A stretch of DNA of 64,000 nucleotides from NCBI GenBank assembly GCA_964588435.1, contig CAZPPI010000002.1:3542-67541 (forward strand), in the 5' to 3' direction. The notes under the pieces were generated by a model that saw only the letters and a program-made list of their open reading frames with translations, had not been told where the DNA came from and made no database searches. The stretch comes from an uncultured Gammaproteobacteria bacterium. GTDB taxonomy: Bacteria > Patescibacteriota > Patescibacteriia > Patescibacteriales > UBA12465. Shown piece by piece: positions 36,283-60,477 of this stretch. How positions within the stretch are numbered: the first letter of the stretch is position 1; each line of letters starts with the position of its first letter. Both the position numbers and the translations under genes were made by a program.

Positions 36283-36831
36283 TTATTTATTTGAAAAAGC
36301 TTTTTCAATCGCTTTAATATTTTTTTCAACAATTTCTTTGCCCTTATCTTTAAATTTTATTTCAATTGCTTTTTTTAAAGATTCAAGAGAAACGAGTTTG
36401 GTAAATTTAGCAAAAGCACCTAAAATAACGGTGTTAACGATGTTTTTGCCAATTATTTCTAAAGCAATTTCAGTTGCTGGAGAAAAGTATAAATTTTTTT
36501 TGTTTTTTAATTCTTCCCAGCGATTTTTTTTAGCGTTAATAATAATTTTTGTTTCATCATTAATACCAGTTAAAATATTATTAGAATCTAATAAACTTGA
36601 ATCTTGAATAATTAAAACACTTGGTTCATAAATCTGTTCCCTCGTAGTTATTTTTTTTCTACTAATTCTGGCGTAGGCTTGGATTGGTGCTCCGGTCCTT
36701 TCTACTCCAAAATTTGGAAAAGCTTGAGCTTCAAGTCCATCGTAGAAAGCGGCTATAGCAATTAATTCAGCGGCCGTTACCACACCTTGTCCGCCTCGAC
36801 CGTGTATTCTTATTTGTTCTAAATTGTTCAT
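36283..36831 (-). CDS. porG: pyruvate:ferredoxin oxidoreductase gamma subunit
   Basis: IRIHGRGGQGVVTAAELIA...FGVERTGAP is typical of the POR/KOR gamma subunit. Confidence 0.85.
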   Translation of the reverse strand: MNNLEQIRIHGRGGQGVVTAAELIAIAAFYDGLEAQAFPNFGVERTGAPIQAYARISRKKITTREQIYEPSVLIIQDSSLLDSNNILTGINDETKIIINAKKNRWEELKNKKNLYFSPATEIALEIIGKNIVNTVILGAFAKFTKLVSLESLKKAIEIKFKDKGKEIVEKNIKAIEKAFSNK

Positions 36832-36834
36832 ATT

Positions 36835-37605
36835 TTAATTAAGGGTTTTTAAGCCAAGAATTAGTTCAATTAAATTTTCTTTACTTAATCCTCCGATTAT
36901 TTCTAAACCATTAATAAACCAAGTTGGTGTGCCCTTGATTCCTAATTTTTCGCCATCTTCATAATCTTTTTTTATTTGACTAAGATATTTTTTGTCTTCA
37001 ACACATTTATTAAATTTTTCTATATCCATTTCTAGAATTTCTGCCATTTGTCCTAGAGCATATTTTTTTTCTTCTTCATCAATTACAATTGCTAAATCTT
37101 CTTGTAAATCAAAAATAAGGTCATGCATTTCCCAAAATTTTCCTTGTTCACCAGCGCAACGGGCACCAAGGGATAAAACAATTGAATCTTGTCCTGGATA
37201 ATCACGATAAACAAAACGAACATCATTTTTAAATTCCTCGGCGACAGCTTTAATTATTTTAGAAATTTGAGCACTATAAACACAAGAAAAGTTACTAAAG
37301 TTTGTGATAATAAGTGGTTCCTTATCTAATTCTGTTTTTTCTGCTCCTAAATAATAGTTATCATTATTTCCCGCAATTAATTTAATTCTTTCCTCGGCTG
37401 CCATAATCAGGGAATTCTCTAATTCTTCTTTTTGTATTTTTTTTACTTCATCAAAAATATAAAAAGTTGCTAGGAAGACAAGAATAAACAATAAAATTGC
37501 TATTATTATAATTAAAATTCCCCACCATTTTTTGTGCCAAGGTAATAATTCTTTCTGGTGGCGAGCTTTCATTTTTGCATACTCAATTCTATCAGAAATA
37601 CTCAT
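36835..37605 (-). CDS. membrane-anchored DsbA/BdbD-like thioredoxin-fold protein with CxxS active site
   Basis: N-terminal TM. DsbA-family hallmarks ARCAGEQGKFWEMHDLIF and GTPTWFINGL. The active-site position reads FSNFSCVYSAQ (Cys-x-x-Ser rather than CxxC). Confidence 0.65.
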   Translation of the reverse strand: MSISDRIEYAKMKARHQKELLPWHKKWWGILIIIIAILLFILVFLATFYIFDEVKKIQKEELENSLIMAAEERIKLIAGNNDNYYLGAEKTELDKEPLIITNFSNFSCVYSAQISKIIKAVAEEFKNDVRFVYRDYPGQDSIVLSLGARCAGEQGKFWEMHDLIFDLQEDLAIVIDEEEKKYALGQMAEILEMDIEKFNKCVEDKKYLSQIKKDYEDGEKLGIKGTPTWFINGLEIIGGLSKENLIELILGLKTLN

Positions 37606-40946: not shown

Positions 40947-41882
40947 ATGTCTGAAATATTAAAAAGAACAAGAGAAATCTGCCGGTTACTTGAAATAAAA
41001 CCAGCCCGATCAAAGGGGCAAAATTTTTTAATTAATGAAAAAATTTATGATGAGATTGTAAAAGTTGCAGAAATTTCCGCGGATGATGTCGTTTTAGAAG
41101 TTGGTCCTGGTTTGGGTTTTTTAACAGCGAAATTGGCGGAAAAAGCTAGACAAGTAATCGCTGTTGAGCTTGATGATAAAATTGCTTCTTATTTGGAGAT
41201 GGCGATTGCTGCTCAGGATGTTGAAAATATTTTTATTGTTAATGAGGATGTTCTGCGTTTTAATTTGGGGGCTTTTTTTGAAAAAAATGGCTTTAAAAAG
41301 CAACAAAAATATAAAATCGTCGCTAATTTACCATATAACATTAGCTCAATTTTTTTAAGAACTTTTTTATCTTCTCAATTAAAACCGGAGTCAATTACTT
41401 TGATGTTACAGAAGGAAGTTGCTAATAGAATTATTGCTCAAGCGCCTGATAATAATTTATTAGCTCTTTCCGTTGCTTTTTATGGCGAAGCAAAAATTAT
41501 TCGTGAGGTTAAGGCGGGTAATTTTTGGCCAGAACCTAAAGTTGATAGCGCTGTGATTAAAATTAGTCTAAATAAAGATGATCACTGGCGTGATTTTTTA
41601 ATTGCTAATAAAATTATTAAATTCAGTAAGAAAAAAGATGATTTATTTTTAGAACGAGAAATTTTAGGTCTAGAAAGAAAGTTTTTTAGAATGTTAAAGG
41701 TTTCTTTTAGTGCAAAACGAAAAATGCTTAAAAATAACTTAGCCGCTGGACTAGAAATTAAGGCTTTAGAACTTGAAGAAAATTTACTTTCAATTGGGAT
41801 TGATTTAAAGACTAGAGCCGAAAATTTAAGCCTTGAAGATTTCAAAAAATTATTTGCGACTATTTATAAATTTATGATATAA
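40947..41882 (+). CDS. rsmA: 16S rRNA (adenine1518/1519-N6)-dimethyltransferase RsmA/KsgA
   Basis: KGQNFLINEKI...VLEVGPGLGFLT (SAM-binding motif I)...NLPYNISS. About 30 aa longer at the C-terminus than typical. Confidence 0.88.
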   Translation: MSEILKRTREICRLLEIKPARSKGQNFLINEKIYDEIVKVAEISADDVVLEVGPGLGFLTAKLAEKARQVIAVELDDKIASYLEMAIAAQDVENIFIVNEDVLRFNLGAFFEKNGFKKQQKYKIVANLPYNISSIFLRTFLSSQLKPESITLMLQKEVANRIIAQAPDNNLLALSVAFYGEAKIIREVKAGNFWPEPKVDSAVIKISLNKDDHWRDFLIANKIIKFSKKKDDLFLEREILGLERKFFRMLKVSFSAKRKMLKNNLAAGLEIKALELEENLLSIGIDLKTRAENLSLEDFKKLFATIYKFMI

Positions 41883-41899
41883 TAAGGGCATAGATTTTT

Positions 41900-41918: not shown

Positions 41919-42581
41919 ATGCTTGAAAATTATCACTTGTCGAGGGAAGACTCTTTAGAAAAAAAAGCTTCAAGAACGCGGAAACTAGTAATTTTTATTT
42001 TTACAGTTGTTGGCGTTTTTTTGTTATTAATAGGTTTTCGTCAGTTAAAAAATAATATCTATAATCCTTTTAGTTTTGCTAATCAGGAAACTAAAGATTT
42101 AAGTTCGGCTGAAGCTGAGGTTCTTTCTTCTTATATCTTGCAGACAACCGATACTGATGTTGATAATTTTTCTGATTATGATGAGTTGTATGTTTATGGG
42201 ACTTCACCTTTTTTGGCTGATACAGATTCCGATGGAATAAGTGATTATGATGAAATTCAGGGTGAAACTGATCCACTTTGTGCTAAAGGTCAAGATTGTT
42301 ATGGATTAAGAGACCCAAGTTTTGTTGTTGCTCCTGATTTATCAGGAAATACCGGAACTAATATTAACGAGACTTCAACAACTCAAGACGAAGACTTGGC
42401 TATTATCGAGGATATAATTAGTGGTCAAGCAGATCCGGCGTTTTTACGAAACCTGCTTTTAAATAATGGTTTTAATGAGGAAGAGTTAAATCAAATAAGT
42501 GATGAGGATTTACAAGCCGCTTATTTTGAGGTTGTTAGTGAACAACTTTCGGCGCAACAAGAAGAAATAAATAATCAATAA
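41919..42581 (+). CDS. secreted/membrane-anchored protein with thrombospondin type-3-like Ca-binding acidic repeats
   Basis: N-terminal TM, then DTDVDNFSDYDEL...DTDSDGISDYDEIQGETDP (DxDxDGxxDxxD-type repeats) and an acidic tail. Confidence 0.6.
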   Translation: MLENYHLSREDSLEKKASRTRKLVIFIFTVVGVFLLLIGFRQLKNNIYNPFSFANQETKDLSSAEAEVLSSYILQTTDTDVDNFSDYDELYVYGTSPFLADTDSDGISDYDEIQGETDPLCAKGQDCYGLRDPSFVVAPDLSGNTGTNINETSTTQDEDLAIIEDIISGQADPAFLRNLLLNNGFNEEELNQISDEDLQAAYFEVVSEQLSAQQEEINNQ

Positions 42582-42593
42582 TATAGAAATAAA

Positions 42594-45500
42594 ATGAAAA
42601 ACTTTTTATTTTTTTTGGAAGATAAAAAACATAAAAATCTTAAAAATTGTTATTGGCTTTTTTTGATTTTTATTTTCGCTTTTTCTTTTAGTTTTTTTCA
42701 GATTCAAGAAGTAAAGGCTCAGGCTGTTGTAACTGATCCCGGAGCCATGGCGCAAAGAACGGTTGAATCGGTCAAACAAACATTTTGGCAGAAATTAGGG
42801 ACGGCTCTGAAGAAAGCGGGGTCCATTGCTTTTAATAGAACTCTACAAAGCTCTTTAAATAAAATTGCTTATGATGCCGCTAATTATATTGGTGCTGGTG
42901 GTGATGGTCAAAAACCATTATTTCGGACTGAGGGGTTGGGTGATTATATGAAAAAGATTGGTGATGAAGCGGGCGGTCAATTTTTAGAAACTTTTGTCAG
43001 AAATCTTGATACCTCCAATGCAACCTCCACTCTTTCTTGTGAAAAGCGTCTAGAGAATTGTTTAACCGATTGTTATCGTCAGGCTAATGGTTACGATCCA
43101 GCTGATGCAGAAAGTCTTAAGTATTTTAGAGATGGTGTGGCGGCTGGTTATGTTGGCGCTGGAGGGCAAGATACAAAGGGCGAGGTTATTGTCGCTGGAC
43201 AAGCTTGTGTTAAACAATGTGAACTTGGAAATACGAGTTGTGTTAGTAATCCTAATAATAATAAGTTAGGCTCAGCTTCTGATGTTAATTCTTTTAATGT
43301 TTGTCAGCCCTCATCAATTGAGGTGAAATTAAAAATCAGTCTTGGTTTAGTTGAACAGAATCGCCCGACTGGTCCAAATTGTACCGCGACCACAATAATT
43401 AATAATTGGGGTGATGATATTGATAAAAAGTTGGCTTCAATTTCTGATGGAAGTTTTTTAAAAAACATTGATAATATTTTTGATCCACGAGCGAATGATT
43501 TAGGAATTTATTTTTTGGCACGAACAGATCTTTCCGCACAATCAAAAATAGAAGTGGATAAGGCTGTATTGGAGGATACAAAAACTGGCGGCTGGATTGA
43601 TGTTAGAAATATTGCCGGTGAATTAAAAGGAACACCCGATACTGCTAAAAACGCTGAAGCCGATGCTAGAGCTATTAGAATAGCAAATTTTGGAAAGACT
43701 ACTGGTGATATTTTTGTTGATGCAGCTAATTTATTTCTAAATCAACTTGCAATTAGTGCTTATAATAATTTGATGCGAAAATTGTCTGATAAAAAAGCTG
43801 ATGCAGGGCCAGCTTTAGCTGATCCTGGAGTTGATCCTAATTTTTCTAGTGTTTCGAGTATGCGAGAGAAAACTAGAGTTCTAATAGAGACAAATTTTGA
43901 GTCGAAAGCTGATTATAGTGTTTTATCTGAATTAGCAGCTTGTCCTAATCCTGGAAATCCTGGACCAAACAATTGTGTAATTGATGACAGGTTTATGCAA
44001 GCTATTGTTGAACAGAAGACTGTTGGTGAAGCGATTAAAGAGGGTTATTTGAACTCGAACTGGAAAGTAGAAAAAGATGTTTTTGCTTCTGCTTATAATA
44101 ATCATTATTCTTTACGTAATATTAAAATTTTAAGAAAATATCGAATCGTCCCTCTTGCTTGGGAGGTTGCGATTGAGAAAGCTTTTGAAGATGAGGAGAT
44201 ACCGGAAAATGTTACCCTTGGTGATTTAGTCGCTTGTTTTTCTGAGAATGATGAATTTGATAAATTTAGTACTAATTTTAAGAGCAGTGATATAAGTTGG
44301 TGCCAGGGTTTAGTTGATCCAAACTGGGTTTTGAAAGCCCCACTTAATTATTGTGGTCAATCTGGCAGTGGTTCCCATATTCTTAATATGACGATGATTC
44401 CTAGTCTTTCTAGTAGTGAACAATTAATTATTACTCGTGCAGATGATTATTGTGCTGATAATCAAAGTTGTATTAAGGAAAGTAAAGAAGGTGCTTGTGA
44501 TCTTTATGGTTATTGTACTGAGGACCGAAGAACTTGGAATTTTGAAAGTGACTCTTGCTCTCCGATAAATAATACTTGTCAAAGTTTTATTAATACAAGT
44601 AATCAAGCAACCGCATCTTATTTAGAAAATACTCTTGATTATGGCGATTGTAACGCTGATTCGGCTGGTTGTCGTCGCTATTCTTTATTTGGTAAATATA
44701 ATGAAAATGGCTCTGTCTCTTGGAATCTTTTTAACAATTTATTCTTTAATAAAAATTTAGTTTCCTGTAATTCTGAAAATGAAGGTTGCTCTGAATTGAT
44801 GCGGATTAAGCCGACTTGGGGATTTAATTTTGTGACCGATTCTGCTTTTAATTTTTTTGGTCTTAATCAGGAACCGGCCGGATCTAAGCTCGGACCATGG
44901 GGAGTATTAGCTGGGGCTAACGCTCAGATTATTAATACTAACGAAGAAGCACCTGATTTTACCGGCAACTCAAAAGCTATTAAAATTTCTGGATCTAATG
45001 GGGCAGGGTTTGAATCAAGCTCTGAAGTTTTTCCTGAAAATTTACAAATTTTAATTAATCAAGATTATACTCTAAGTGCTGATATTTTCTTATTTAGTGG
45101 TGACAGAGTCCAAATGTTTTTAAATCCTGGCGATAAACAAGTGTCAACGGTTGTTAATCAGAGTGGTTATTGGCAAAGAGTTAGTTTAACAATTAATACT
45201 GATTCTGGTTTCTATGAGCCTAAATTTTCCTTTGTTGGTTATGGGTCTTCGGTTAGTTTTTATGTTAAAAATATTAAATTTGAATTAAGTGGTGTCGAGA
45301 CAACTTATAATAATTATGGTAGCTATATTAGTAGGGCAGGAAGCTTGTTATCAGCTCGATTTAGTCAAAAATTATTACCGGCTTATTTACATGAGACTTG
45401 TTATGTTGATTCTGTTTCAGCTTCAAAGGATTATACTTTAAAAAGTGATGCTCCAGCTATTTGTTCTAATTATGCTAGACAATGTAATCAGGATGAGGTT

Positions 45501-48500
45501 GGTTGTGAACTATTTATTAATAGTTATGATAATTTTTCAACTCCAGCTCAAGTAAATAGTTCTGACTATTGTGCTGGTGAATGTGTTGGTTACGACGTTT
45601 ATATTGCTAAAGAAAATTATTTTAATCCAACAGAAGCTCAGAATTTAATTCCTAATTCAACTACTAAATGTGCTCAGTCTGCCGTTGGTTGTAACGAATT
45701 TACTAATTTAGATGCAGTTGCTAAGGGTGGCGAGGGAAAAGAATATTATTCTGAATTAAAGCAATGTATCAAGCCAAATTCTGGGCAATGTGCTAATTTT
45801 TATACCTGGGAGAGCTCTGCTGGTGGTTATCAAATTAAAACTTATAGTTTACAAAAAGACAATAATAATAATCCTTTAATCAACTATGGCGATCAAGCTT
45901 CAGGTGACTGTAGCGATATCTTTGGTCTACCGCTTAGCGATCCTCGTTATAATCCTGATTGTAGAGAATTTAGAAACACTTCCGGCCAGGTTTCCTATCG
46001 TTTAATTTCAAGAGTCATAACTTGTTCAGATAATTGTTTCAGTTATCGTTTAAATAGCAATAATATTCATCCGACCGCTAAAACCCAGGCTGAATGTAAT
46101 AGTAGCAGTGATGAAACTTATTGGAATAGTTCAAATTCTACTTGTCTTACTTGTTTAAATGGCGGTAAGTGGGATACAAATCAAAATGCTTGTGTTTATC
46201 AAGCGATCCCTGGGGAAGGAAAATCTTGCCAAGCCTCTCAAGTCGGCTGTCGGGAGTATAATGGTAATCGTGGTAATGATGTTCGTTTAATTGCCAATTA
46301 TGATTTTGAAAATGGTCTTAGTGGTTGGTATTCAAACTGTACTGATGGAGTTGACTGGAGCCCAGTTGCTAATAATCAACAAGGAAGTTCACTATTCTAT
46401 AATTCTTCCGCTAGTTCCTGTGAATCGTCTGGTGGTGAAAAGGTTGCTAAGATAAAGCTTGGTTTAGAAATTAAAGCTGGAAGAGCTTATAGTTTGAAAT
46501 TTTTAGCTCGTTCTGCTGAAGCTAATATTTTAGAAATTTATTTTGAGAGTGTTGACGGCGATAGATATTTCTTTAATTTATCGGCGGTGGCTGAAAGAGA
46601 TGGCGCAGTATCAATTAAGGGTGGAAATGAATGGGCTATTTATCAAGTTAATTTAGAAAATGTGACTGAAACCCTAGGTTTTGATGGCACTTTAAATATT
46701 TCTGCTAGTCATGATTTTTATATTGATGATTTGCTTTTAACTGAGATTAGTAATCGTTATTATTTTATTAAAGATTCAATTAAAATTCCTGATGTTTGTT
46801 ATTATGATAATTCAGGAAAATATCAAGGCGCTGATTATAATCTAGGCTGCTCTCAATATAAAGACAAAGATAATTATATTCATAATTTACATAATTTTAC
46901 CAAGCTTTGTCCTAGCTCTTCGATTGGTTGTGAACAAATGATTACAACTAATAATTATACTTCGCCCCAGGCTATGTCTTGGAATGTGAATAATTTAGGA
47001 CAATCTTGCGACCCTGGCGATGAAGGGTGTTTAACAGTTGAAAGAGATAAGATAATATATGTGGTCTATGATAAATCAAAATCTTGTCTTGCTAATGACA
47101 TCGGTTGTAGCCGAATGGGGGAGGGTCTTGGTTCTGGTTATGATATTAGTTGGTCTGATGTTTTTAAATTGAATAACCCTAATAATTACAATCAAACTTT
47201 ATGTGCTGAGGGAGATTTAGGTTGTGAGGAATATCGAGATATTAATAGTGGTGGTCTAAGTTACTTTAGAAATCCAGCAAATAATTTATGTGTTTATCGT
47301 TCCAGTAGTAATCCTGAGATTTCTGGTAAGGCTTGGTATAAAGTTCCAGTAAAAAGATGTGATTTAAATAGTAATGGCTCGATTGAAGGACTTGAAGTTG
47401 GGGGGACAATTTGTTCTAAAGATGAAGATTGCGTTTCAGGAACTTGCGTTGTTGATAACAATGATTATACTTGTTCAGTTTCCTATTTAAAAACTATTGG
47501 TTATGGTGGTTTAGGGGCGGCAATCCCTGTACCTGATAAATCGGTGGCTTTGTGTGATGCCGCCGCCGCTGGTTGTACAGAATATATTGATCCAGTTAGT
47601 AAATTTAATCCTAATTTAGTAAAAAATCCCGAATATAATGATGGTGGCAAGGGTTGGGGTGAAGATATTTGGCCTCAAGTTAATGGTAATCCAATAGGTA
47701 AAACTGAACAGGTCATTAGTTTAGAGAGAAATAAACTTTATGGTTTTAGAGCGACGGATAAGAGTGGGGGTGTTGTTGACGGAGGAGTTAGCCTTAAATT
47801 TATTGGTGATGTTAGAATTTTAGGCGAGGAGACTATCGATACGATAAAAAAATTAGGAACTAGTAATAATTTTGGCGATGTAACTAAATTATTAACTATT
47901 AATGCCAATTATCCTTATATTATTTTTAATTCTTTGAGTAATTATTCAGCTCTCTTATCGGGCGGGGACGCAAGTTATATTATTGAATTAAAAGAATTAG
48001 CAATTGACTATAATATTAGAGGGGATGTTGATGGTAGTAGTTGTAATGGTTTAGTAAATTTTGATACTGGTTGTATTTTATTTAATGAACGCTCAATTGC
48101 TGGGGCAGCTGGTTTGGAATTAAATAAATTTAATGCCTTGGCGGGTGATGGTGTGCCAGTCATTAGTTATAGCCCCTATAATGCCAATAAACTATTAAAA
48201 GTAAGACCTGATAGAACTTGTGCTTCTTGGCTTTCTTGTACTTCCTATGCTTTAAATAGTGATGGTTCAAAATCTTGTAGCTCAGTTGCTGAATGTAATC
48301 TATTAGATGATAAAAATGAGTGCCTTAATTTTATTGTCAGACCAGAAGCTGAAAGCATTGTTTTTGATGCAGAAAAAAATCGTAATGCGACCGGTTACGC
48401 TTTGGCGGGAAATTATTATTTTAACAACATTAAGGAAGTTGGTCTTAATACTAGTGTTCGTTATGACTTTGAAGAAAATATTCCTCCTTTGAGCTGTGTA

Positions 48501-50942
48501 CGGGCCAATAGTGCTGGAGAGCCCTTGATTAATGACACCGGCTTTTGTTCCTTTGATGAAAACATAATTAAAGACAGCTTGATTCGTGAACCGGGACTAA
48601 TTAGCTATCCGGCTAAAGGAAAAACTTATTTAAAAGTTTCTCCTCTTCAAGCAATTTCTCCTCATGCAGGAGGCTCATATGTTGTTTTGCCAGAAGCGGG
48701 AGAATATTATTTAAGTTATTTACTTAATACTCAGAATTCTAATACTTCAGCTAAAGTATCAATTGAAAACGTTTCTAATAGAAATATTATGCATGACATG
48801 GGAGTAGAAGAACAAGCCCCTAATGGTTGGGAGAGAAAAATTCATAAAATAACAACAGTTAAGGATAATGTTAAAATTAGAATTTATTTAAGTTTAGTGG
48901 AAACGGGTAGTTCGGGGCCAGTTTATTTTGATGATATAAATATTGAAACAGTTTTAAGGGTGGCTGAGAATGATTATCGTGCTCGTGATTGTCGACTTTA
49001 TCCGAACTCTTCTAGTTTTGGTTGTCAGGAAGTTGAAAATTCGGTGGTTAGAAATGGGGTTGAGGGTTATTGTCTTGAATATGATTTAGCTAATTCAAGT
49101 GTTTGTCAACTCTGGATGCCAATTGATAGAATTGCCTCGTCTAAAATAAATAGTAATCAGCTTGGTTATAATGGTAAATACCCTCTTAGTTATTGTGCTT
49201 TGGCTAACAGTAATTTTCTTTATCTTGAAAAAAGAGAAGCGGCTGTAGTTAAAGAAGAAAGTATTAGAAGAAATAGTGATGATTATTTAGATGTTCGTGT
49301 TTGTTATTATCCGGGAACAGCTCTTAATTATTGTCAGTCAATGTTTTATGCTAGTAGTTCGATTGAAATAATGCCAACTTCAACTCCTTTAGGACAACCA
49401 ATTAGTACTTCTGGCGAATATAACGTTACCATTACCTATGATAATAACAATCCTGATAGTGAGCCAATTATTACTGTTGGTGGTCAACAAGATTTAACTC
49501 AAGAAGAGCAAGAAGAATTACCAGAAAATCTTGTTATTGTTGGTGGAAAAGTTAAAGATTTAGGGAATATTCCGGTGGTTTCTGAATATTGTGGTGATTC
49601 AGGAAATTATTTCTTAATGGTCACCCAAGATTTGAAACAAGAAAACGGGTTATTTAAACGAGATGATGTGGCCATCACCTACCTTTGTTTACCAATTAAT
49701 AATTATAATTATTATACTCCTGATAGAACCTTTAGATACGTAGCGACAAAATCAGAACCGATAACAACTTTTAGTGGTGTGCAGAAAGTTTATCCAATTA
49801 CTGATGGTTGGTATTTAGCTGATGGTTTTCATAACGCTGCGGGGATAGCCCCAGAAAATAAAAGAGGGGGTAGTCCTGGTGGTTTTGATGAACTTTATAA
49901 TGCTGATCCACCTCTTCGAGTTTTGGATTTAAATTATTCAATACCAGCTGGAGAAGATGATTTAAAAAAGATTTCAAGTAGTGATCCTGATGAAGTTTTT
50001 CGTTTAACTTGTGATAAATTTGTTGAAGCCGTTTCTGGTTCCGGGGATAATATGGCTTGGACTAGCAGAGTTGCGCTTGGTTCAAATTATATAGTTACTT
50101 CAACAAATCCGATTATACGATACAATGGTTATATTAGACAGATTGGCGACATTCCTTTCGGAGCAGCTTCTTGGCCCGATGATTTTAATTTGGCAAAAAG
50201 TGAGAGGGTTCCTTTATATAATCAATACTCAGCTAAAAATAAAGAAGATGTTTTTGCTGGACGTCCTTATGGTTGTAACGCTAAAGATGCTCAGGGGGTC
50301 GCTAACTGTTCTAGTATTGGCTATTGCAGCGCTAATCCCGACGTTTATTGTTTAGTTGATAATACCGGACTATTTAATGCCAATACTTATGATATCACTC
50401 GTCATTCTTGTGGTACTTGGGGAACCTGTAAACCTCTATGGACCATTCCTACAGGAGCCTATCAATCTAGCGTGCTAATATCTTATCTTAAAGATTACCC
50501 TAGCGCCCTTAGTCAATTATTTATCCAAGCTCCAGTTGCTTATGAGTTTAAAGATGATGCTGGGGGTTATGTTAGTGCTACTGGATATTATAATTCTAAT
50601 ATGGCTGGGTCTAATCCTGGAGTTTCAAACCTTAAACTTTATAAAGCTGATACGAGCATTGAATTTAATGCTGATTCTGGAATTAGAGCTGGTAATTACC
50701 GCTTGGAATTTAATTCAAATATTGACTCTGATCATCAACCACTGAAAGAAATATTTATTGATTGGGGGGATGGATTTAAGCAGGTTATTATTGGTGAGGA
50801 TTCAAAGAGTAGCTCATCTGAAGCTAGACATATTTTCTACCATTTCTATCCTGATAACAGAGCGTTAGATAGCACAATTATCAGGGTTAGAGTTTATGAT
50901 AATTGGAAGAAAGGATCAACTGATGCGATTTTAACAAGATAA
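42594..50942 (+). CDS. giant (2782 aa) secreted Cys-rich surface protein with CBM4/9-like jelly-roll modules
   Basis: Signal peptide ending VKAQA. Uninterrupted 8.3 kb ORF with more than 100 Cys. At least three modules with the N-x-[DE]-F-E-x-G-x-x-G-W carbohydrate-binding signature: around nt 44815-45290 (IKISGSNGAGFESS...), 46295-46750 (NYDFENGLSGW...FYIDDLLLTEI) and 47620-48010 (NPEYNDGGKGWGEDIW...). Confidence 0.85.
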   Translation: MKNFLFFLEDKKHKNLKNCYWLFLIFIFAFSFSFFQIQEVKAQAVVTDPGAMAQRTVESVKQTFWQKLGTALKKAGSIAFNRTLQSSLNKIAYDAANYIGAGGDGQKPLFRTEGLGDYMKKIGDEAGGQFLETFVRNLDTSNATSTLSCEKRLENCLTDCYRQANGYDPADAESLKYFRDGVAAGYVGAGGQDTKGEVIVAGQACVKQCELGNTSCVSNPNNNKLGSASDVNSFNVCQPSSIEVKLKISLGLVEQNRPTGPNCTATTIINNWGDDIDKKLASISDGSFLKNIDNIFDPRANDLGIYFLARTDLSAQSKIEVDKAVLEDTKTGGWIDVRNIAGELKGTPDTAKNAEADARAIRIANFGKTTGDIFVDAANLFLNQLAISAYNNLMRKLSDKKADAGPALADPGVDPNFSSVSSMREKTRVLIETNFESKADYSVLSELAACPNPGNPGPNNCVIDDRFMQAIVEQKTVGEAIKEGYLNSNWKVEKDVFASAYNNHYSLRNIKILRKYRIVPLAWEVAIEKAFEDEEIPENVTLGDLVACFSENDEFDKFSTNFKSSDISWCQGLVDPNWVLKAPLNYCGQSGSGSHILNMTMIPSLSSSEQLIITRADDYCADNQSCIKESKEGACDLYGYCTEDRRTWNFESDSCSPINNTCQSFINTSNQATASYLENTLDYGDCNADSAGCRRYSLFGKYNENGSVSWNLFNNLFFNKNLVSCNSENEGCSELMRIKPTWGFNFVTDSAFNFFGLNQEPAGSKLGPWGVLAGANAQIINTNEEAPDFTGNSKAIKISGSNGAGFESSSEVFPENLQILINQDYTLSADIFLFSGDRVQMFLNPGDKQVSTVVNQSGYWQRVSLTINTDSGFYEPKFSFVGYGSSVSFYVKNIKFELSGVETTYNNYGSYISRAGSLLSARFSQKLLPAYLHETCYVDSVSASKDYTLKSDAPAICSNYARQCNQDEVGCELFINSYDNFSTPAQVNSSDYCAGECVGYDVYIAKENYFNPTEAQNLIPNSTTKCAQSAVGCNEFTNLDAVAKGGEGKEYYSELKQCIKPNSGQCANFYTWESSAGGYQIKTYSLQKDNNNNPLINYGDQASGDCSDIFGLPLSDPRYNPDCREFRNTSGQVSYRLISRVITCSDNCFSYRLNSNNIHPTAKTQAECNSSSDETYWNSSNSTCLTCLNGGKWDTNQNACVYQAIPGEGKSCQASQVGCREYNGNRGNDVRLIANYDFENGLSGWYSNCTDGVDWSPVANNQQGSSLFYNSSASSCESSGGEKVAKIKLGLEIKAGRAYSLKFLARSAEANILEIYFESVDGDRYFFNLSAVAERDGAVSIKGGNEWAIYQVNLENVTETLGFDGTLNISASHDFYIDDLLLTEISNRYYFIKDSIKIPDVCYYDNSGKYQGADYNLGCSQYKDKDNYIHNLHNFTKLCPSSSIGCEQMITTNNYTSPQAMSWNVNNLGQSCDPGDEGCLTVERDKIIYVVYDKSKSCLANDIGCSRMGEGLGSGYDISWSDVFKLNNPNNYNQTLCAEGDLGCEEYRDINSGGLSYFRNPANNLCVYRSSSNPEISGKAWYKVPVKRCDLNSNGSIEGLEVGGTICSKDEDCVSGTCVVDNNDYTCSVSYLKTIGYGGLGAAIPVPDKSVALCDAAAAGCTEYIDPVSKFNPNLVKNPEYNDGGKGWGEDIWPQVNGNPIGKTEQVISLERNKLYGFRATDKSGGVVDGGVSLKFIGDVRILGEETIDTIKKLGTSNNFGDVTKLLTINANYPYIIFNSLSNYSALLSGGDASYIIELKELAIDYNIRGDVDGSSCNGLVNFDTGCILFNERSIAGAAGLELNKFNALAGDGVPVISYSPYNANKLLKVRPDRTCASWLSCTSYALNSDGSKSCSSVAECNLLDDKNECLNFIVRPEAESIVFDAEKNRNATGYALAGNYYFNNIKEVGLNTSVRYDFEENIPPLSCVRANSAGEPLINDTGFCSFDENIIKDSLIREPGLISYPAKGKTYLKVSPLQAISPHAGGSYVVLPEAGEYYLSYLLNTQNSNTSAKVSIENVSNRNIMHDMGVEEQAPNGWERKIHKITTVKDNVKIRIYLSLVETGSSGPVYFDDINIETVLRVAENDYRARDCRLYPNSSSFGCQEVENSVVRNGVEGYCLEYDLANSSVCQLWMPIDRIASSKINSNQLGYNGKYPLSYCALANSNFLYLEKREAAVVKEESIRRNSDDYLDVRVCYYPGTALNYCQSMFYASSSIEIMPTSTPLGQPISTSGEYNVTITYDNNNPDSEPIITVGGQQDLTQEEQEELPENLVIVGGKVKDLGNIPVVSEYCGDSGNYFLMVTQDLKQENGLFKRDDVAITYLCLPINNYNYYTPDRTFRYVATKSEPITTFSGVQKVYPITDGWYLADGFHNAAGIAPENKRGGSPGGFDELYNADPPLRVLDLNYSIPAGEDDLKKISSSDPDEVFRLTCDKFVEAVSGSGDNMAWTSRVALGSNYIVTSTNPIIRYNGYIRQIGDIPFGAASWPDDFNLAKSERVPLYNQYSAKNKEDVFAGRPYGCNAKDAQGVANCSSIGYCSANPDVYCLVDNTGLFNANTYDITRHSCGTWGTCKPLWTIPTGAYQSSVLISYLKDYPSALSQLFIQAPVAYEFKDDAGGYVSATGYYNSNMAGSNPGVSNLKLYKADTSIEFNADSGIRAGNYRLEFNSNIDSDHQPLKEIFIDWGDGFKQVIIGEDSKSSSSEARHIFYHFYPDNRALDSTIIRVRVYDNWKKGSTDAILTR

Positions 50943-51006
50943 TTATTTTACTGTTAAGAAGAAAAAAAATAAGGTATAATTTAGAGAGAATTAAGTTTAG
51001 TTGCTT

Positions 51007-51543
51007 ATGCACGTTGATGATAATTTATTAGAAAGGACTAGTGATGAGGATGAGGATGAAGATTTTTCTTTTGATGGTGAGTCTTATGACCAAGGTGAAG
51101 AAGAGAGTCAAATAGGGAATCAGGGTCGAGCAAGAGATGATGTTGACGACAGTGCCCCCCAGTCTTTAAGAGAGGCGAGAATAATAGAGAAAGCTAAACT
51201 TGATAGTCAAAGTAAAAAAGAGGAGTTAAAAAAAACAGCAAAAGCAGAGGCGTCTTCAAAACTTTTAACTATATGCTTTTCCCTTAAAACTCTAGGTGCT
51301 TCCTGGGGACTATCAGCTCTTTATGGAAATGTTCATCTTTTTTTAAAGTATACAGTTAATAATAAATTAAGGGGATTAAGTTTAAGAGAGTCAATGATAT
51401 TGTTGTTGTGTGATGTAATTATAATTTTATTAATTATTATCCAGGTTGCTCTTATTGCTTTAATTGTTGGCTTTATTAAAAATCCTCTTGAAGCTATTAA
51501 AAGTATATTAGAAAGCGTGTTCCCGAATTGGAAAAATATTTAA
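51007..51543 (+). CDS. small protein with acidic N-terminus and C-terminal hydrophobic hairpin (possible T4SS membrane component)
   Basis: DEDEDEDF-rich N-terminal half. Two C-terminal hydrophobic segments (LLTICFSLKTLGASWGLSALYG and MILLLCDVIIILLIIIQVALIALIVGFI). Immediately upstream of the VirB6-like gene. The ORF track starts at TTG 51001. Confidence 0.45.
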   Translation: MHVDDNLLERTSDEDEDEDFSFDGESYDQGEEESQIGNQGRARDDVDDSAPQSLREARIIEKAKLDSQSKKEELKKTAKAEASSKLLTICFSLKTLGASWGLSALYGNVHLFLKYTVNNKLRGLSLRESMILLLCDVIIILLIIIQVALIALIVGFIKNPLEAIKSILESVFPNWKNI

Positions 51544-51574: not shown

Positions 51575-54169
51575 ATGAAAATTAATATTTTCAAGAAAAT
51601 AAATAACTCCCTGGGAAAAAAATCAATAATTATTATTAGTGTTTTGGTTTTTTTGGGCTTATCTTTAGCCGCTCCGGCTTCTGCTGATTGGGCAATCACA
51701 GTATTTGGTGGTATCTTAAAAATAATTATTGGCGGGGTTGGACTTATTTTAATTTTAGCTATTAGAGCTTTAGTTTATGTTGCTCAATATTCAACTTTTT
51801 TAAACTCGGGCGCCGTTACCCTTGGCTGGGTTATAGTTCGTGATCTTTGTAATATGTTTTTTGTGGTCGTTCTTTTAATTATTGCTTTTGGAACAATTCT
51901 AAATATAGAAAAATATAATTATAAAAAGTGGTTGCCAAAATTAATTTTGATGGCAATTTTAATTAATTTTTCTAAAACTATTTGTGGGGTTTTAATTGAT
52001 ATTGCTCAAGTGGTGATGCTTACTTTTGTTAATTCTTTTAGCACTATTGGTGCCGGAACCTTGGTTAATGTTTTGGGGATTACCGATATTTTGCAAATAG
52101 CAAAAAGTGGTAATGAAGATATTGGTTTTTGGACGGTTATCGGTGCTTATTTACTTGGCTTAGCCTACGTTATTGTGTCTCTAATAGTAGTTATTACGAT
52201 GATATCGATGCTCGCTATTCGTATTGTCATGATTTGGATTTATGTTGTTTTATCACCTTTAGCTTATCTTTTGTCAGCTTTTCCCGGGGGTCAATCTTAT
52301 GCTTCAAAATGGTGGACTGAGTTTACTAAAAATTTAATTGTTGGACCAGTTTTAGCTTTTTTTCTTTGGTTATCTTTTGCTGCTTTAACCAGTGATCAAG
52401 TAAGAGATGCTCAAACAATAGATGAGGCTAGTAGATTAGAGCAAAATAAGTTATTAGGTTTTGATCCTGATGAGGCCTCAATCGAAACTAAAGCTTCTAG
52501 TCCTGGAGCTTTAATTAAATTTATCATTGCAATTGGGATGCTTGTTGGTGGTCTTAAAATTGCTCAAGAGGTTGGCGGTGCCGCCGGTTCTATGGCAGGC
52601 AAGGGAATGGCAGCGGTTAATAAAGCGGGCAAGATTGGTTTAGCGGGTGCGGCGGCGATTACTGGAGTAAGAGCGGCTAAGGGAATTTATAAAAATTATA
52701 GCTCTGCCAGAAAATCAGCCCGAGAAGATAAATATAAGAATGCCGCAGTTAAGATGGCGGATGGAATTGGGAGGGCTAAAAAAAGTGTCGGCGGAGCGGT
52801 TACTGGTGGTTTGCAAAAAGTTAAAGATAGTACTTTTGGTAGAAGAGAGGCAAAAGCTAAAAAACTTCAAGCTGAGGCTAGAGTAGAGAGTACAGAAATC
52901 GATACAATAAAACAGAACCTTAATCAAAAGAAGGGTGTGGTCGGTGATTATCAGTATGATGAGGGTGTTAAGAGTTGGCGTCATAGCATAACAGGAATGG
53001 TAACTGGAGAAGAAAGAGTTAGAGAAAAGGCTGATGAGATTATTAAAGCTAAAGATGACGTTGTTAGCGCTAAACAAACAGAGGCAGAGAAACTACATTT
53101 CAAACAACAAAAAATAGATGATGTTTTGAAATATGGAGCCTTAGCTGCTGGAGGCATAGCTGGACTTGCCCTTGGCGGCGTCCCAGGACTTCTTGTTGCT
53201 GGAGGGGCCGCAGTTGGAGCTTCGCGTGGTTATGATAAATTTAAAAATGCTGGTAAAACCGATTTAGGGATTGCTTCTGGATTTCGTCTAAAGGAGATTA
53301 AGAAGGAAAAAGATGCTTTGAAAGATGAGGATAATGGAAGTGTGATTGCTAAGATGGATGATCGTACTATTAGCGCTTTTGAGAGAGCAGCTGCGGCTTT
53401 AGAAGCGATGGATAGAGGTTTGCTTTCCTCTGAACAAGCAGAATCTAAGAAAAAAATGATTGCGAATGAGATTGGCGGAGTCGATGAGAATGGTGATTTT
53501 AAGGATAAAAAAGTTGGTAATTATTTTGAATCGATTGCTGAAAGAAAAAATATTTCCGCTTCTTCTGATTTTCAAGATTTAAAAAGTGAAAATCCTGAAG
53601 TAAAGAGTCGAGCTGAAAGAAATGTTAGAGATAATGTTGAAAAAGGTAATTATAGCCTAGAATCTCTTGACGTAGGAGCAATTAGAGCGATTGGTCCTCA
53701 ATTAGTTGCCGCGATGAAGGCTAAAGACTTTGGCGCTCAATTTACTGCAATGAAAGACCAAGCTAAAAAGCGAGAGATTGTTGAGATGTTAAAGAAACTG
53801 GTTAATAAAGATACTAGCGGATTGCCAAGCGGTAGTATTGAAAAAAACAATGCTGAAGCGGGAAAATTAGAGGCGATGAAGAGATTGAATCAAGTTACGG
53901 ATTTAAATACGGCAACGGTTGGAATTTCTGATCCCGTAGATAGACAGGCTAAAAAAGAAGCGATTTTGGCTGATTTATCTTTTACTCAATTGGCGGATGT
54001 TTTTAATGGCAATGATAAAAAACAGCAAGATGCAATTGTTGAAGCTATACAAAAGTCTAGTCGTGAGGATAAACTTAGTATTTTTGTGACCGCAGAAAAA
54101 TCTTTAAGGGGAACATCTCAGGTTGCTAAAGATTTGCGCTCTGAGGCTAAGCTTAATTTAGAAGTTTGA
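51575..54169 (+). CDS. VirB6/TrbL-like polytopic T4SS inner-membrane protein with ~500-aa hydrophilic C-terminal extension
   Basis: Signal/TM followed by 6-7 TM helices in about 300 aa, with an architecture like TrbL/VirB6/ConG. Then a Gly/Ala-rich linker and a long charged C-terminal domain. Confidence 0.55.
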   Translation: MKINIFKKINNSLGKKSIIIISVLVFLGLSLAAPASADWAITVFGGILKIIIGGVGLILILAIRALVYVAQYSTFLNSGAVTLGWVIVRDLCNMFFVVVLLIIAFGTILNIEKYNYKKWLPKLILMAILINFSKTICGVLIDIAQVVMLTFVNSFSTIGAGTLVNVLGITDILQIAKSGNEDIGFWTVIGAYLLGLAYVIVSLIVVITMISMLAIRIVMIWIYVVLSPLAYLLSAFPGGQSYASKWWTEFTKNLIVGPVLAFFLWLSFAALTSDQVRDAQTIDEASRLEQNKLLGFDPDEASIETKASSPGALIKFIIAIGMLVGGLKIAQEVGGAAGSMAGKGMAAVNKAGKIGLAGAAAITGVRAAKGIYKNYSSARKSAREDKYKNAAVKMADGIGRAKKSVGGAVTGGLQKVKDSTFGRREAKAKKLQAEARVESTEIDTIKQNLNQKKGVVGDYQYDEGVKSWRHSITGMVTGEERVREKADEIIKAKDDVVSAKQTEAEKLHFKQQKIDDVLKYGALAAGGIAGLALGGVPGLLVAGGAAVGASRGYDKFKNAGKTDLGIASGFRLKEIKKEKDALKDEDNGSVIAKMDDRTISAFERAAAALEAMDRGLLSSEQAESKKKMIANEIGGVDENGDFKDKKVGNYFESIAERKNISASSDFQDLKSENPEVKSRAERNVRDNVEKGNYSLESLDVGAIRAIGPQLVAAMKAKDFGAQFTAMKDQAKKREIVEMLKKLVNKDTSGLPSGSIEKNNAEAGKLEAMKRLNQVTDLNTATVGISDPVDRQAKKEAILADLSFTQLADVFNGNDKKQQDAIVEAIQKSSREDKLSIFVTAEKSLRGTSQVAKDLRSEAKLNLEV

Positions 54170-56822: not shown

Positions 56823-57254
56823 ATGCAGCAATTTATCGTACCACAATTTATTGATGTTGAAGCAAAAATTATTGGCCCGATTACCGCTCCTCAATTTTTG
56901 ATTTTACTTGCAGCTACTTTAATAATAGCTCTTTGTTATCGCCTTCTTCATTTCACTCCTTTCCTAATAGTTACTGTTATAGTCCTTGGTTTAGCTGGCA
57001 CTTTCGCCTTTGTTAAAATAAATGGCCGATCTTTTCATTATTTTATTTTAAATTTATTACAAACAACTCGCCGACCCAATGTTAGAGTTTGGAATCATAA
57101 AATTGTCGTTAATGAGCAAACAGAAAAAACATCAATTCAGAAAATTGACTATAAACCTCTACCAAAAAAAGAGTATAAAAAATCAAGACTAGCAGAGATC
57201 TCTTTGATCGTTGATACTGGTGGTAAATATAGAGGGGAAAATCAGAATCTTTAA
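56823..57254 (+). CDS. VirB3-like small two-TM protein (ConD/PrgI-like position)
   Basis: 143 aa with two TM helices (ITAPQFLILLAATLIIALCY and FLIVTVIVLGLAGTFAFV). Sits directly upstream of VirB4, which is the conserved VirB3-VirB4 arrangement. Confidence 0.45.
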   Translation: MQQFIVPQFIDVEAKIIGPITAPQFLILLAATLIIALCYRLLHFTPFLIVTVIVLGLAGTFAFVKINGRSFHYFILNLLQTTRRPNVRVWNHKIVVNEQTEKTSIQKIDYKPLPKKEYKKSRLAEISLIVDTGGKYRGENQNL

Positions 57255-57263
57255 AATATAATT

Positions 57264-57929
57264 ATGGCTAAAAATAAGATTAAAAATTCAACCCAAGAGC
57301 ATCTTGATATCGCTGAAATCAGAGATGATATTGTTGTTATGAAAGATGGAACCTTACGTTCTGTTATTATGGTTTCTAGTATTAATTTTTCTTTAAAGAG
57401 TGAAGACGGTCAAAACGCAGTTATTGGCGCTTATGTTCGCTTTTTGAATAATTTAAATTTTCCTTTACAAATTATTATTCAATCCAGAGAATTAGATATT
57501 GATAATTATTTAGAGTACTTAAAAATAAAAGAGAAGGAACAGACGAATCGTTTATTAAAAGTACAAACGGCCGACTATATTGAATATATTAAAGAATTAA
57601 CTTCGTTAGGAAAAATAATGAATAAAAGATTTTTTGTCGTTGTTCCCTATAGCGCCTTGTCAGATAAACGAAAAGGATTTTTTAGTCTCTTAGGCGAGGC
57701 TCTGCGACCAGCAACAATTTTAAAATTAAAAGAAAAAACTTTTAGAAAATATCAGGAAATGCTTGATCGTCGGGTTGATAGTGTAATTGGTGGGCTAGAA
57801 TCTATGGGGGTAACAACGACGAGACTTGATACCCAGAGTTTAATTGAATTATATTATAAAACTTATAATCCAGAATCATCAAGAAACCAGGAATTACCAG
57901 ATTTAGATAAGATGAGAGTTGAGCGTTAA
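57264..57929 (+). CDS. virB4: VirB4/TrbE-family ATPase, N-terminal domain fragment (in-frame with next ORF, separated by a single TAA)
   Basis: HLDIAEIRDDIVVMKDGTLRSVIMVSSINFSLKSEDGQNAVIGAYVRFLNNLNFPLQIIIQ matches the VirB4/CagE/TrbE N-terminal pattern. It ends at TAA 57927-57929, in the same frame as the ATG at 57939. Confidence 0.6.
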   Translation: MAKNKIKNSTQEHLDIAEIRDDIVVMKDGTLRSVIMVSSINFSLKSEDGQNAVIGAYVRFLNNLNFPLQIIIQSRELDIDNYLEYLKIKEKEQTNRLLKVQTADYIEYIKELTSLGKIMNKRFFVVVPYSALSDKRKGFFSLLGEALRPATILKLKEKTFRKYQEMLDRRVDSVIGGLESMGVTTTRLDTQSLIELYYKTYNPESSRNQELPDLDKMRVER

Positions 57930-59862: not shown

Positions 59863-60477
59863 ATGGATAATAATAGAAAAAAGATTGGTATTATGTTAAT
59901 AATTTTAGGGCTTTTAATAATTGCTTTAATAATTTATTTTGGTTTTATTAAAAAAGACAAAGACGAGCCAATTATAACTGAAAACCCTGTGGTTGATTTA
60001 CCGTTACCGGCTGGAGATGACTTAACAAATCCTGGAGATATAGCTCGTTCTTGGCAACCAAATTTAAGCGCTGAAGCGGATCATGTTTTTAATGAAACGG
60101 ATTTGGAAAAACGTGCTAAAGCTTTTGCTGAGAGATTTGGCTCTTATTCGAATCAATCAAATTATAGTAATTTTTCCGACCTAGAAATATTTATGACCAA
60201 GAGTTTCTCTGATTGGACCGAATCTTATGTCGAACAGTTAAGAGAGAGTGCTCCTGGTTATGAAGTCTATTATGGGATAAGTACAAGAGCTTTAACGACT
60301 GAGTTAATTAGTTTTGATGAAGCCTCTAGCAAGGCGGAGATTAATGTTTTAACCGAAAGAAGTGAATCTTCAGCCAATGGCGGTGATTTAGAGCCTTATC
60401 AACAAAAAATACTTTTAAAATTCAATAAAGTAGCTAATGATTGGTTGGTTGACGCTGCTTATTGGGAGAAAAGATAA
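59863..60477 (+). CDS. membrane-anchored periplasmic protein, VirB8-like position (hypothetical)
   Basis: N-terminal TM (IGIMLIILGLLIIALIIYFGFI) plus a hydrophilic domain of about 170 aa, directly after VirB4. The size and topology fit a VirB8/NTF2-like bitopic protein, but no motif was verified. Confidence 0.35.
   Translation: MDNNRKKIGIMLIILGLLIIALIIYFGFIKKDKDEPIITENPVVDLPLPAGDDLTNPGDIARSWQPNLSAEADHVFNETDLEKRAKAFAERFGSYSNQSNYSNFSDLEIFMTKSFSDWTESYVEQLRESAPGYEVYYGISTRALTTELISFDEASSKAEINVLTERSESSANGGDLEPYQQKILLKFNKVANDWLVDAAYWEKR

Follow-up and report, generated by a model that had tools for sequence, protein, structure and literature searches.

The question raised by this locus is what a giant exported protein does for a patescibacterial cell, and whether it may serve to contact another cell. 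The protein, hereafter called the giant protein, has 2782 residues and is encoded at positions 42594-50942 of a 64,000-nucleotide stretch of contig CAZPPI010000002.1 (the window), upstream of genes of a type IV secretion system (T4SS). Patescibacteria account for much of the diversity of bacteria, and they are believed to live attached to other cells; outside the Saccharibacteria, we know of neither their hosts nor their contact molecules. A preliminary description of the window had proposed that the giant protein is a secreted, cysteine-rich adhesin for host attachment, with three jelly-roll modules of carbohydrate-binding type. As judged from predicted folds and family matches, its most likely function is to bind glycans at the cell surface; a role as host-attachment adhesin is plausible, and the link to the T4SS is weak.

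The reading that we favour, and in which we place middling confidence, is that the giant protein is a Sec-exported, disulfide-stabilised, glycan-binding extracellular protein of about 300 kDa that may contact a host or partner cell. Its open reading frame (ORF) and the parts distinguished below are the following, where M1-M3 correspond to the three segments of the preliminary description.

42594-50942, plus strand: the giant ORF, with ATG start, 2782 residues plus stop
42594-42719, plus strand: predicted Sec signal peptide, residues 1-42, proposed cut VKA/Q after A42
42720-44789, plus strand: N-terminal region, residues 43-732, mostly alpha-helical in prediction
44790-45308, plus strand: M1, residues 733-905, CBM4/9-type beta-jelly-roll (first segment)
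45309-46265, plus strand: cysteine-rich linker 1, residues 906-1224, with 20 cysteines and C-x6-C at residues 957, 964, 1026 and 1212
46266-46769, plus strand: M2, residues 1225-1392, CBM4/9-type beta-jelly-roll (second segment)
46770-47585, plus strand: cysteine-rich linker 2, residues 1393-1664, with 20 cysteines and C-x6-C at residues 1439, 1472, 1498, 1537 and 1654
47586-48029, plus strand: M3, residues 1665-1812, small beta-sandwich, CBM16-like (third segment)
48426-48968, plus strand: M4, residues ~1945-2125, fourth CBM-like module, absent from the preliminary description
49224-49943, plus strand: hypervariable, indel-rich region, residues ~2211-2450, defined by alignment conservation
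49944-50939, plus strand: conserved C-terminal region, residues 2451-2782, with a PKD-like motif at its end and without LPXTG or transmembrane (TM) segment

An intact reading frame and its family

The giant ORF is real, intact and non-chimeric. It is indeed the single frame of 8.3 kb described earlier, opening with ATG, and no competing ORF of at least 80 residues is found inside 42594-50942 on either strand. Its GC content stays within 0.344-0.355 and the GC skew is likewise uniform from end to end, in a window whose GC content is low, about 0.30-0.39, and in which gene direction is mostly shared across 37.6-61.8 kb. Among 5.8 billion proteins searched, one deposited at NCBI (P0001) is identical, and more than 250 are full-length homologs with 40-79% identity, collinear over residues 1-2782. 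The same collinear architecture recurs in dozens of independent assemblies, and a relative is encoded on the closed 977-kb Falkowbacteria chromosome CP066698.1 (locus L035). The preliminary description had named a chimeric misassembly as one of the findings that would refute it. In view of this collinearity, of the identical NCBI entry and of the even composition along the frame, the possibility that the ORF is an artefact, either such a chimera or a fusion of genes, can be regarded as practically negligible.

The giant protein belongs to a large, strongly conserved and hitherto undescribed orthologous family, which is specific to Falkowbacteria-type Patescibacteria. Homologs are essentially all about 2600-2950 residues long and are annotated solely as "hypothetical protein" of Candidatus Falkowbacteria or of the Patescibacteria group. 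With residues 40-735 as query, phmmer gave 1231 matches at E ≤ 1e-3, 826 of them at E ≤ 1e-30, among 1.84 billion cluster representatives (clusters at 50% identity), and nearly all of these proteins have 2400-2950 residues. When every GTDB species was scanned through one representative genome, relatives turned up in at least 230 of these genomes; nearly all of the homologs are from Candidatus Falkowbacteria or Patescibacteria. There is no model of the family in Pfam-A or NCBIfam, and no paper on it was found in the full-text literature searched. It falls, nevertheless, within kinds of protein that have already been noted, namely the large cysteine-rich surface proteins from bacteria in the candidate phyla radiation (CPR) and surface proteins with multiple carbohydrate-binding modules (CBMs).

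A single giant locus per genome is present in 79 of the 80 listed records. In the metagenome-assembled genome WB02no5_39_7 the gene is found on two contigs (L040 and L081), once in full (residues 7-2773) and once in part (residues 951-2219); a duplicate gene, heterogeneity between strains or an error of binning could each account for this. It is also seen that many GTDB records with this clearly patescibacterial locus (L006, L010, L012, L037, L052 and others) bear titles such as "uncultured Gammaproteobacteria bacterium", "Bacillota bacterium" or "Saccharimonadales", and record titles are thus an unreliable guide to the taxonomy of giant-bearing loci.

Jelly-roll modules, cysteines and terminal regions

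We now consider the internal modules. An AlphaFold2 model of residues 720-1900, which covers M1-M3, was based on a 45-sequence alignment and has a mean predicted local distance difference test (pLDDT) score of 67. It contains confident all-beta blocks at residues ~732-990 (pLDDT 80-94), ~1230-1385 (77-89) and ~1680-1801 (73-88), and the three segments flagged in the preliminary description (residues 741-899, 1234-1386 and 1676-1806) each lie inside such a confident beta-rich block. M3 is modelled with 9 strands. Comparison of this model with the PDB by Foldseek gave 187 matches at E ≤ 1e-3, not resolved by module. The single-domain matches are carbohydrate-binding modules, with target template modelling scores (TM-scores) of 0.57-0.69; they comprise CBM22 (4xuo, 0.67), CBM4 (2y6j, that is CBM4-2, 0.67, and 3p6b), CBM16 (2zey, 0.62), CBM70 (4d0q) and a porphyran CBM (8xmz, 0.69). 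The multi-domain matches, to Cry protoxins, ELAPOR1, GH101 enzymes and binary-toxin translocases, have TM-scores of ~0.1, and therefore just CBM-like or cysteine-rich pieces align. Structure prediction and fold comparison, both proposed in the preliminary description, thus bear out its three jelly-roll segments; M4 is a further CBM-like module, recognised by sequence profiles.

At the level of sequence profiles, the Pfam family CBM_4_9 that had been suggested for the modules is matched by 16 of 18 giant homologs at E ≤ 0.01 (best 5.3e-8), with P0022 (28.3 bits), P0027 (26.7 bits) and P0079 (29.4 bits) above the gathering cut-off of 25.9 bits. The giant protein itself stays below significance. 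Since homologs pass the cut-off and the giant protein does not, the membership holds at the level of the family and not for this protein alone. The match of P0027 corresponds to giant residues 816-880 (M1), and the CBM_4_9 and Mann_GBD_bact matches of P0022 and P0079 correspond to residues 1236-1353 (M2). M1 is also matched, at residues 768-905, by the NCBIfam model GTA_spike_fiber, the head spike fibre of gene transfer agents (GTA), with E = 2.3e-5, which is under the curated cut-off, and the M2 profile gives a weak match in the PDB to 1gui, a CBM4. For M3 there is no Pfam match, while a cropped M3 family profile (A5) finds CBM16 structures alone in the PDB (2zew, 2zex, 2zey, 3oea and 3oeb, E = 0.03-0.08); CBM16 structures of this set recur among the Foldseek matches. 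Finally, Pfam CBM_4_9_1 (BppA domain 1) is found in P0079 with E = 4.2e-6, above the curated cut-off and at a position corresponding to giant residues 2032-2116, and the fourth module was therefore defined there; the M4 profile weakly matches 4d0q, a CBM70, in the PDB (E = 0.03). Taken together, M1 and M2 are strongly supported as CBM-type jelly-rolls, and M3 moderately so. Both fold and family suggest that the modules bind glycans.

The signature NYDFENGLSGW, by which the preliminary description had recognised the modules, occurs in exact form once, at residues 1235-1245 of M2; M3 has a looser version, NLVKNPEY...GKGW, and the start of M1 differs. In a similar way, the description of the modules as repeated is valid for the shared fold type but not for the sequence. 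BLASTP of the whole giant protein against itself gave no off-diagonal matches and no tandem repeats, BLASTP with 120-residue fragments of it gave nothing significant (best E = 0.017), and hhalign comparisons between the four modules are weak, the best pair being M1 and M4 with E = 1e-3. Because this profile-profile similarity is weak, the modules must have diverged long ago. Recent internal repeats were considered and rejected on the basis of these BLASTP and hhalign results, the likeness between the modules being structural. In the family alignment, invariant aromatic residues are found within the modules, for example W1245, Y1299, F1327, W1347 and Y1350.

It is important to note that the modules are set in a protein rich in cysteine. 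The number of cysteines is 89, and not more than 100 as first stated, which amounts to 3.2% of the residues compared to a mean of 0.78% for the remaining 38 ORFs of at least 100 residues in the window, an enrichment of about four times; the homologs contain 88 to 126. In an alignment of 28 homologs with 41-78% identity, 83 of the 89 cysteines are kept at ≥90%. Their spacing, which the preliminary description had proposed to analyse, is distinctive: C-x6-C pairs occur 14 times, compared to 2.8 expected and a maximum of 9 in 2000 shuffles, and the stricter loop C-x5-G-C-x-[ERST]-[YFLMWV] occurs 8 times, compared to 0.01 expected. Loops of the C-x6-C type are located immediately N-terminal to M1 (C725-C732), M2 (C1212-C1219) and M3 (C1654-C1661). 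In the same alignment, the cores of the modules have a column conservation of 0.42-0.56, compared to 0.62-0.76 for the cysteine-rich linkers. Linker 1 (0.56-0.74) lies mostly above its flanking modules, and linker 2 (up to 0.76) is the best conserved part of the giant protein.

Next, we turn to the ends of the protein. By direct reading, the N-terminus is MKNFLFFLEDKKHKNLKNCYWLFLIFIFAFSFSFFQIQEVKA, followed after the proposed cut by QAVV. It has a lysine-rich n-region, a hydrophobic core at residues 19-38 and a small-x-small site, V-K-A/Q, in which A42 is invariant in the family alignment, where the consensus of the cleavage region is AxAQ. This fits a cleavable Sec signal, as predicted in the preliminary description, with the point of cleavage deduced from the motif. 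Neither an LP.T[GAN] motif anywhere in the sequence nor a hydrophobic segment at the C-terminus was found.

Most homologs match the stretch of residues ~233-735. For residues 1-735, AlphaFold2 gives a mean pLDDT of 55 and mostly long helices, with confident parts at residues 150-220 and 440-580 alone, and no known fold or family could be recognised for residues 43-732. The sole Pfam match on the giant protein is DUF4141 (E = 0.003), which overlaps the signal peptide and is present in 1 of 18 family members. This match and the mature N-terminus QAVVTDP suggested a VirB5/TrbJ-like N-terminus, which was rejected; searches with Pfam, phmmer against the PDB and tblastn against plasmids showed no similarity of the giant protein to VirB5, and the literature on DUF4141 was uninformative.

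Toward the other end, residues ~2211-2450 have a column conservation of 0.13-0.41, a gap fraction of up to 0.61 and ~200 inserted alignment columns. The C-terminal ~100 residues carry a PKD-like motif, IDWGDG...H.FYH.Y...DNW. Pfam PKD or PKD_4 is found in just 3 of 19 cropped homologs, with marginal values (E = 0.017-0.04), and not in the giant protein itself. A profile search of the C-terminal region against the PDB was empty, and a PHROGs scan of the giant protein for phage fibre families gave no matches.

The gene neighbourhood

The surroundings of the giant gene were compared in 83 related loci, and the denominators below are the loci informative for each neighbour. The genes of the window that enter this comparison are given here.

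41919-42581, plus strand: TSP3 protein, 220 residues, TM segment at residues 19-44, ending 12 nucleotides before the giant ORF
51001-51543, plus strand: 180-residue protein with acidic N-terminus and C-terminal hydrophobic segment, a conserved small neighbour
51575-54169, plus strand: 864-residue polytopic membrane protein, 7-8 TM segments by TM scan
56823-57254, plus strand: PrgI/VirB3 (Pfam PrgI, E = 1.1e-6)
57264-57929, plus strand: TrsD (NCBIfam TrsD, E = 3.5e-8)
57939-59825, plus strand: VirB4/TraG P-loop ATPase (Pfam P-loop_TraG, E = 6.4e-30)
59863-60477, plus strand: 204-residue protein directly after VirB4, N-terminal TM segment, weak NTF2-like (YvbJ) Pfam match (E = 0.022)
36835-37605, minus strand: membrane-anchored DsbA-like thioredoxin (Pfam Thioredoxin_4, E = 3.3e-17; DSBA, E = 3.3e-10)
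31804-32949 and 33866-34804, minus strand: T4SS_pilin (PF18895) proteins, with 18 of 381 and 14 of 312 residues cysteine
32964-33860, 34797-35990 and 36283-36831, minus strand: pyruvate:ferredoxin oxidoreductase subunit genes

The order on the plus strand is xth, leuS, ksgA, TSP3, giant, 180-residue, 864-residue, 388-residue, 469-residue, PrgI/VirB3, TrsD, VirB4, 204-residue and radA. The position in a T4SS-like locus and next to a TSP3 protein, both put forward in the preliminary description, are thus confirmed: PrgI/VirB3, TrsD and VirB4/TraG follow downstream on the same strand, and the gene product ending directly upstream matches Pfam TSP3_bac with E = 1.2e-5 (25.4 bits for a cut-off of 25).

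The TSP3 protein is the tightest and most constant neighbour of the giant protein. By tblastn it is found upstream in 70 of 75 loci, and phmmer recovers it in L064, L071 and L033, where tblastn had missed it. The 864-residue protein lies 0.6-8 kb downstream in 48 of 49 loci, so that the constant unit consists of TSP3 and the giant protein, usually with the 864-residue protein. The other neighbours are found at 69/69 for KsgA, 59/59 for xth, 58/58 for DsbA, 54/57 for the pilin and 32/47 for the 388-residue protein. In L003, L008, L015 and L077 a PfkB-AdoHcyase-MetK block, which is not present in the window, follows the homolog of the 388-residue protein. In L077, whose flank extends far enough, the homolog of the 469-residue protein, the first of the 469-residue/PrgI/TrsD/VirB4 block, resumes after these metabolic genes, showing for this locus that VirB4 falls outside the fetched flank because the metabolic block intervenes.

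The 864-residue protein has its 7-8 TM segments in the first ~330 residues, and another at residues 522-543, while its C-terminal half is hydrophilic. Searches of Pfam (E ≤ 10), NCBIfam and the PDB gave no match for it, and Pfam scans of its homologs were equally null; the family comprises more than 1200 clusters, some members of which are named "APC family permease" or "DMT family transporter". Judging by topology and position, it is a candidate for an extended VirB6 analogue. For VirB8, which is reported to be hard to find in Patescibacteria (PMC12102498), the 204-residue protein offers a candidate analogue. No recognisable VirB1-type hydrolase was found at the locus by profile scans of the window proteins. 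The DsbA-like gene lies some 5 kb upstream of the giant gene and is transcribed divergently from it, and its product is a candidate oxidase for exported cysteine-rich proteins, a link that is circumstantial.

The T4SS_pilin genes are interleaved with those of the pyruvate:ferredoxin oxidoreductase subunits, an arrangement kept in 54 of 57 related loci, in which the pilin-like proteins have up to 28 cysteines. A promoter-like site is present at 41854-41883 on the plus strand, 5' of the TSP3 gene (TTGCGA, 18-nucleotide spacer, TATAAT, upstream TG; 10/12 match). We do not count it as evidence; the promoter and terminator scan of the window gave counts not above those of shuffles. No terminator-like site lies between the giant gene and the next genes.

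Possible functions of the giant protein

According to the reading that we favour, signal peptidase would cut the giant protein at VKA/Q after export, and the nearby DsbA-like oxidoreductase may help to form roughly 40 disulfides, which would result in a rigid, protease-resistant scaffold. The jelly-roll modules could then bind a cell-surface polysaccharide, most likely that of a host or partner cell, with the less conserved modules and the hypervariable residues ~2211-2450 tuning the specificity. The protein would be held non-covalently on the surface of the producer by the TSP3 protein and/or the 864-residue protein, and might cooperate with the adjacent T4SS and the cysteine-rich pilin-like proteins, at most as a lineage-specific accessory of the T4SS and not as a core part of it. 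An outward-facing role in recognition is favoured because variable modules are set on a conserved scaffold and a hypervariable stretch is present.

A number of observations weigh against this reading. The giant protein itself has no Pfam CBM_4_9 match even at E ≤ 10, the sequence support for M3 is marginal (E = 0.03), and CBM-type folds are also found in enzymes, toxins and phage fibres, so that the fold is no proof of an adhesin. About half of the protein (residues 43-732 and ~2126-2782, ~1350 residues) has no recognisable fold, which means that its main activity could reside there. The C-terminus lacks a wall or membrane anchor, and a protein of almost constant length, under strong purifying conservation and devoid of tandem repeats, is unlike the typical host-range adhesin. 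As to the gene context, VirB4 is found within 10 kb downstream of the giant gene in just 18 of 45 related loci, L064 has TSP3 and the giant protein with no 864-residue protein downstream, and LeuRS, KsgA, xth and DsbA are as syntenic with the giant protein as the T4SS genes are. The adjacency to the T4SS is therefore part of a generally frozen gene order and carries little specific functional weight.

As to known systems, the fold of the internal modules is like that of CBM4, CBM9, CBM16 and CBM22 (PF02018), including BppA domain 1 and the GTA head-spike fibre, and in M2 and M3 the first strand has an N..FE.G...GW-type signature as in CBM4/9. However, unlike in the CBM systems, the modules are joined to no recognisable catalytic domain and are spaced by long disulfide-rich linkers. 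Large cysteine-rich extracellular proteins with a proposed role in attachment have been described in Peregrinibacteria (Anantharaman et al. 2016, PMC4736985), and Vampirococcus has been noted to possess giant surface proteins (PMC8080830). The giant protein shares with them a length of more than 1000 residues, a signal peptide, enriched cysteine, a gene for disulfide formation nearby and a proposed attachment role (PMC4736985, PMC8080830), and with its 2782 residues, signal-like N-terminus, 3.2% cysteine and DsbA-like gene it belongs to the CPR class of large cysteine-rich proteins, which is a descriptive class and not a homology family. Its cysteine content is lower than the 7.2% +/- 2.4% of the Peregrinibacteria proteins, and the lineages differ (PMC4736985). 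Moreover, where those proteins come from a variable multigene cluster, the giant protein is encoded at a single conserved locus whose length is constant, and it has, unlike them, defined CBM-type modules and a T4SS neighbourhood.

Among proteins associated with secretion systems, PrgB (aggregation substance of pCF10) resembles the giant protein in its large size, in presumed surface exposure and in a presumed role in cell-to-cell contact. The giant gene, in the window, is likewise placed upstream of those for a VirB6-like candidate, VirB3 and VirB4 in a T4SS of monoderm type (MPF-FATA-like) (PMC12857230). In contrast to PrgB, the giant protein has no LPXTG motif, is chromosomal and lineage-wide rather than mobile, and has an unrelated architecture; neither it nor 18 homologs contain a Pfam domain of the polymer-adhesin (GbpC or antigen I/II) type. 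The likeness to VirB5, TrbJ and TraC consists of Sec-type export, the position beside a VirB6-like candidate in a system with VirB2-like pilins, and an N-terminal region that is helical in a low-confidence model, but the giant protein is ~12 times larger and no similarity in sequence or fold was found. Repeat-type adhesins (LapA, SiiE and Bap-like RTX proteins, and the Ig-repeat MSCRAMMs) are extracellular and of comparable size, and the TSP3 partner is calcium-binding; the giant protein differs from them in being without tandem repeats, disulfide-stabilised and of constant length, with an N-terminal Sec signal where the RTX type has a C-terminal type I secretion signal.

Three alternatives to the favoured reading have to be weighed. 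The giant protein could be a dedicated extracellular component of the T4SS (tip, stalk or contact), an analogue of VirB5 or PrgB that docks on the 864-residue protein and presents lectin modules. It is encoded upstream of this polytopic VirB6-like candidate in 48 of 49 loci and, in the window, also upstream of PrgI, TrsD, VirB4 and the possible VirB8 analogue, an order that we take to mirror prgB...prgH-prgI-prgJ of pCF10. The pilin-like neighbours are also cysteine-rich, and Patescibacteria have VirB2-like pilins with no T4SS adhesin identified (PMC12102498, PMC12857230); a 2025 survey described their T4SS as monoderm-type (MPF-FATA-like) and did not detect PrgB-like adhesins (PMC12102498). 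However, since the giant family is confined to Falkowbacteria-type genomes and the T4SS is spread across Patescibacteria (PMC12102498), the protein cannot be a core part of this machinery. The searches with Pfam, the PDB and plasmid tblastn showed no similarity to VirB5, TrbJ, TraC or PrgB, the weak DUF4141 match overlaps the signal peptide and is confined to one member, no profile backs the 864-residue protein as VirB6, and the distance to VirB4 varies as described above, with metabolic genes intervening in four loci. The argument for a direct role in the T4SS is thus purely one of gene position, and we consider this alternative unlikely, although with a real chance of being correct. The same small but appreciable probability is given to its extended form, in which the giant protein would be a lectin-bearing, disulfide-locked functional counterpart of VirB5 or PrgB. 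Together with the TSP3 and 864-residue proteins, it would supply the host-contact module so far missing from the patescibacterial T4SS and pilus in Falkowbacteria, choosing the host by its surface glycans through the variable jelly-roll modules and residues 2211-2450 and positioning the secretion channel.

The remaining two alternatives place the function elsewhere. A housekeeping scaffold of the envelope (surface-layer, sheath or wall-associated), the modules of which bind the cell's own wall glycopolymers, would agree with the single locus in nearly all listed records, with a length that stays constant and strong purifying selection in hundreds of species, and with the setting among the housekeeping genes xth, leuS and ksgA in conserved order; modules that bind the cell itself would also explain how a protein without its own anchor is retained. 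However, surface-layer proteins are usually cysteine-poor and much smaller, the hypervariable region and the more variable modules suit an outward-facing, diversifying interface better, and T4SS and pilin genes flank the giant gene, which makes us regard the scaffold as rather improbable. Somewhat more doubtful still is an enzyme that processes polysaccharide or cell wall, or a perforating, toxin-like factor, in which the CBM modules merely target an active domain at the N- or C-terminus. Such a domain could be sought in the ~1350 residues without assigned fold; CBM4, CBM9, CBM16 and CBM22 are classically joined to glycoside hydrolases, the best single-domain matches are from xylanases, cellulases and a laminarinase, the multi-domain matches include GH101, Cry protoxins and binary-toxin translocases, and the locus has no recognisable VirB1-type hydrolase. 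Against this, no glycoside hydrolase, lyase, lysozyme, peptidase or pore-former was found with Pfam (18 members), NCBIfam, PHROGs or PDB profiles, and the CBM-like domains alone match the Cry, toxin and GH101 chains. The quality of the N-terminal model is too poor for judging whether an active domain is located there.

The saccharibacterium Southlakia epibionticum cannot grow on its host without the T4SS, the pilins of this system and several surface proteins with glycan-binding domains (PMC10633639). The giant protein ranks with the largest and best conserved proteins that Falkowbacteria export, and it adjoins the T4SS, a machinery essential for epibiosis in this one genetically tractable relative. 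The four lectin-type modules and the hypervariable region provide handles for finding the host and for tracking specificity. If the host-contact role with the T4SS turned out to be true, the giant protein would be a host-range determinant for a candidate phylum without a cultured member, and if it were merely a scaffold of the cell's own envelope, it would still be a defining envelope protein of the lineage.

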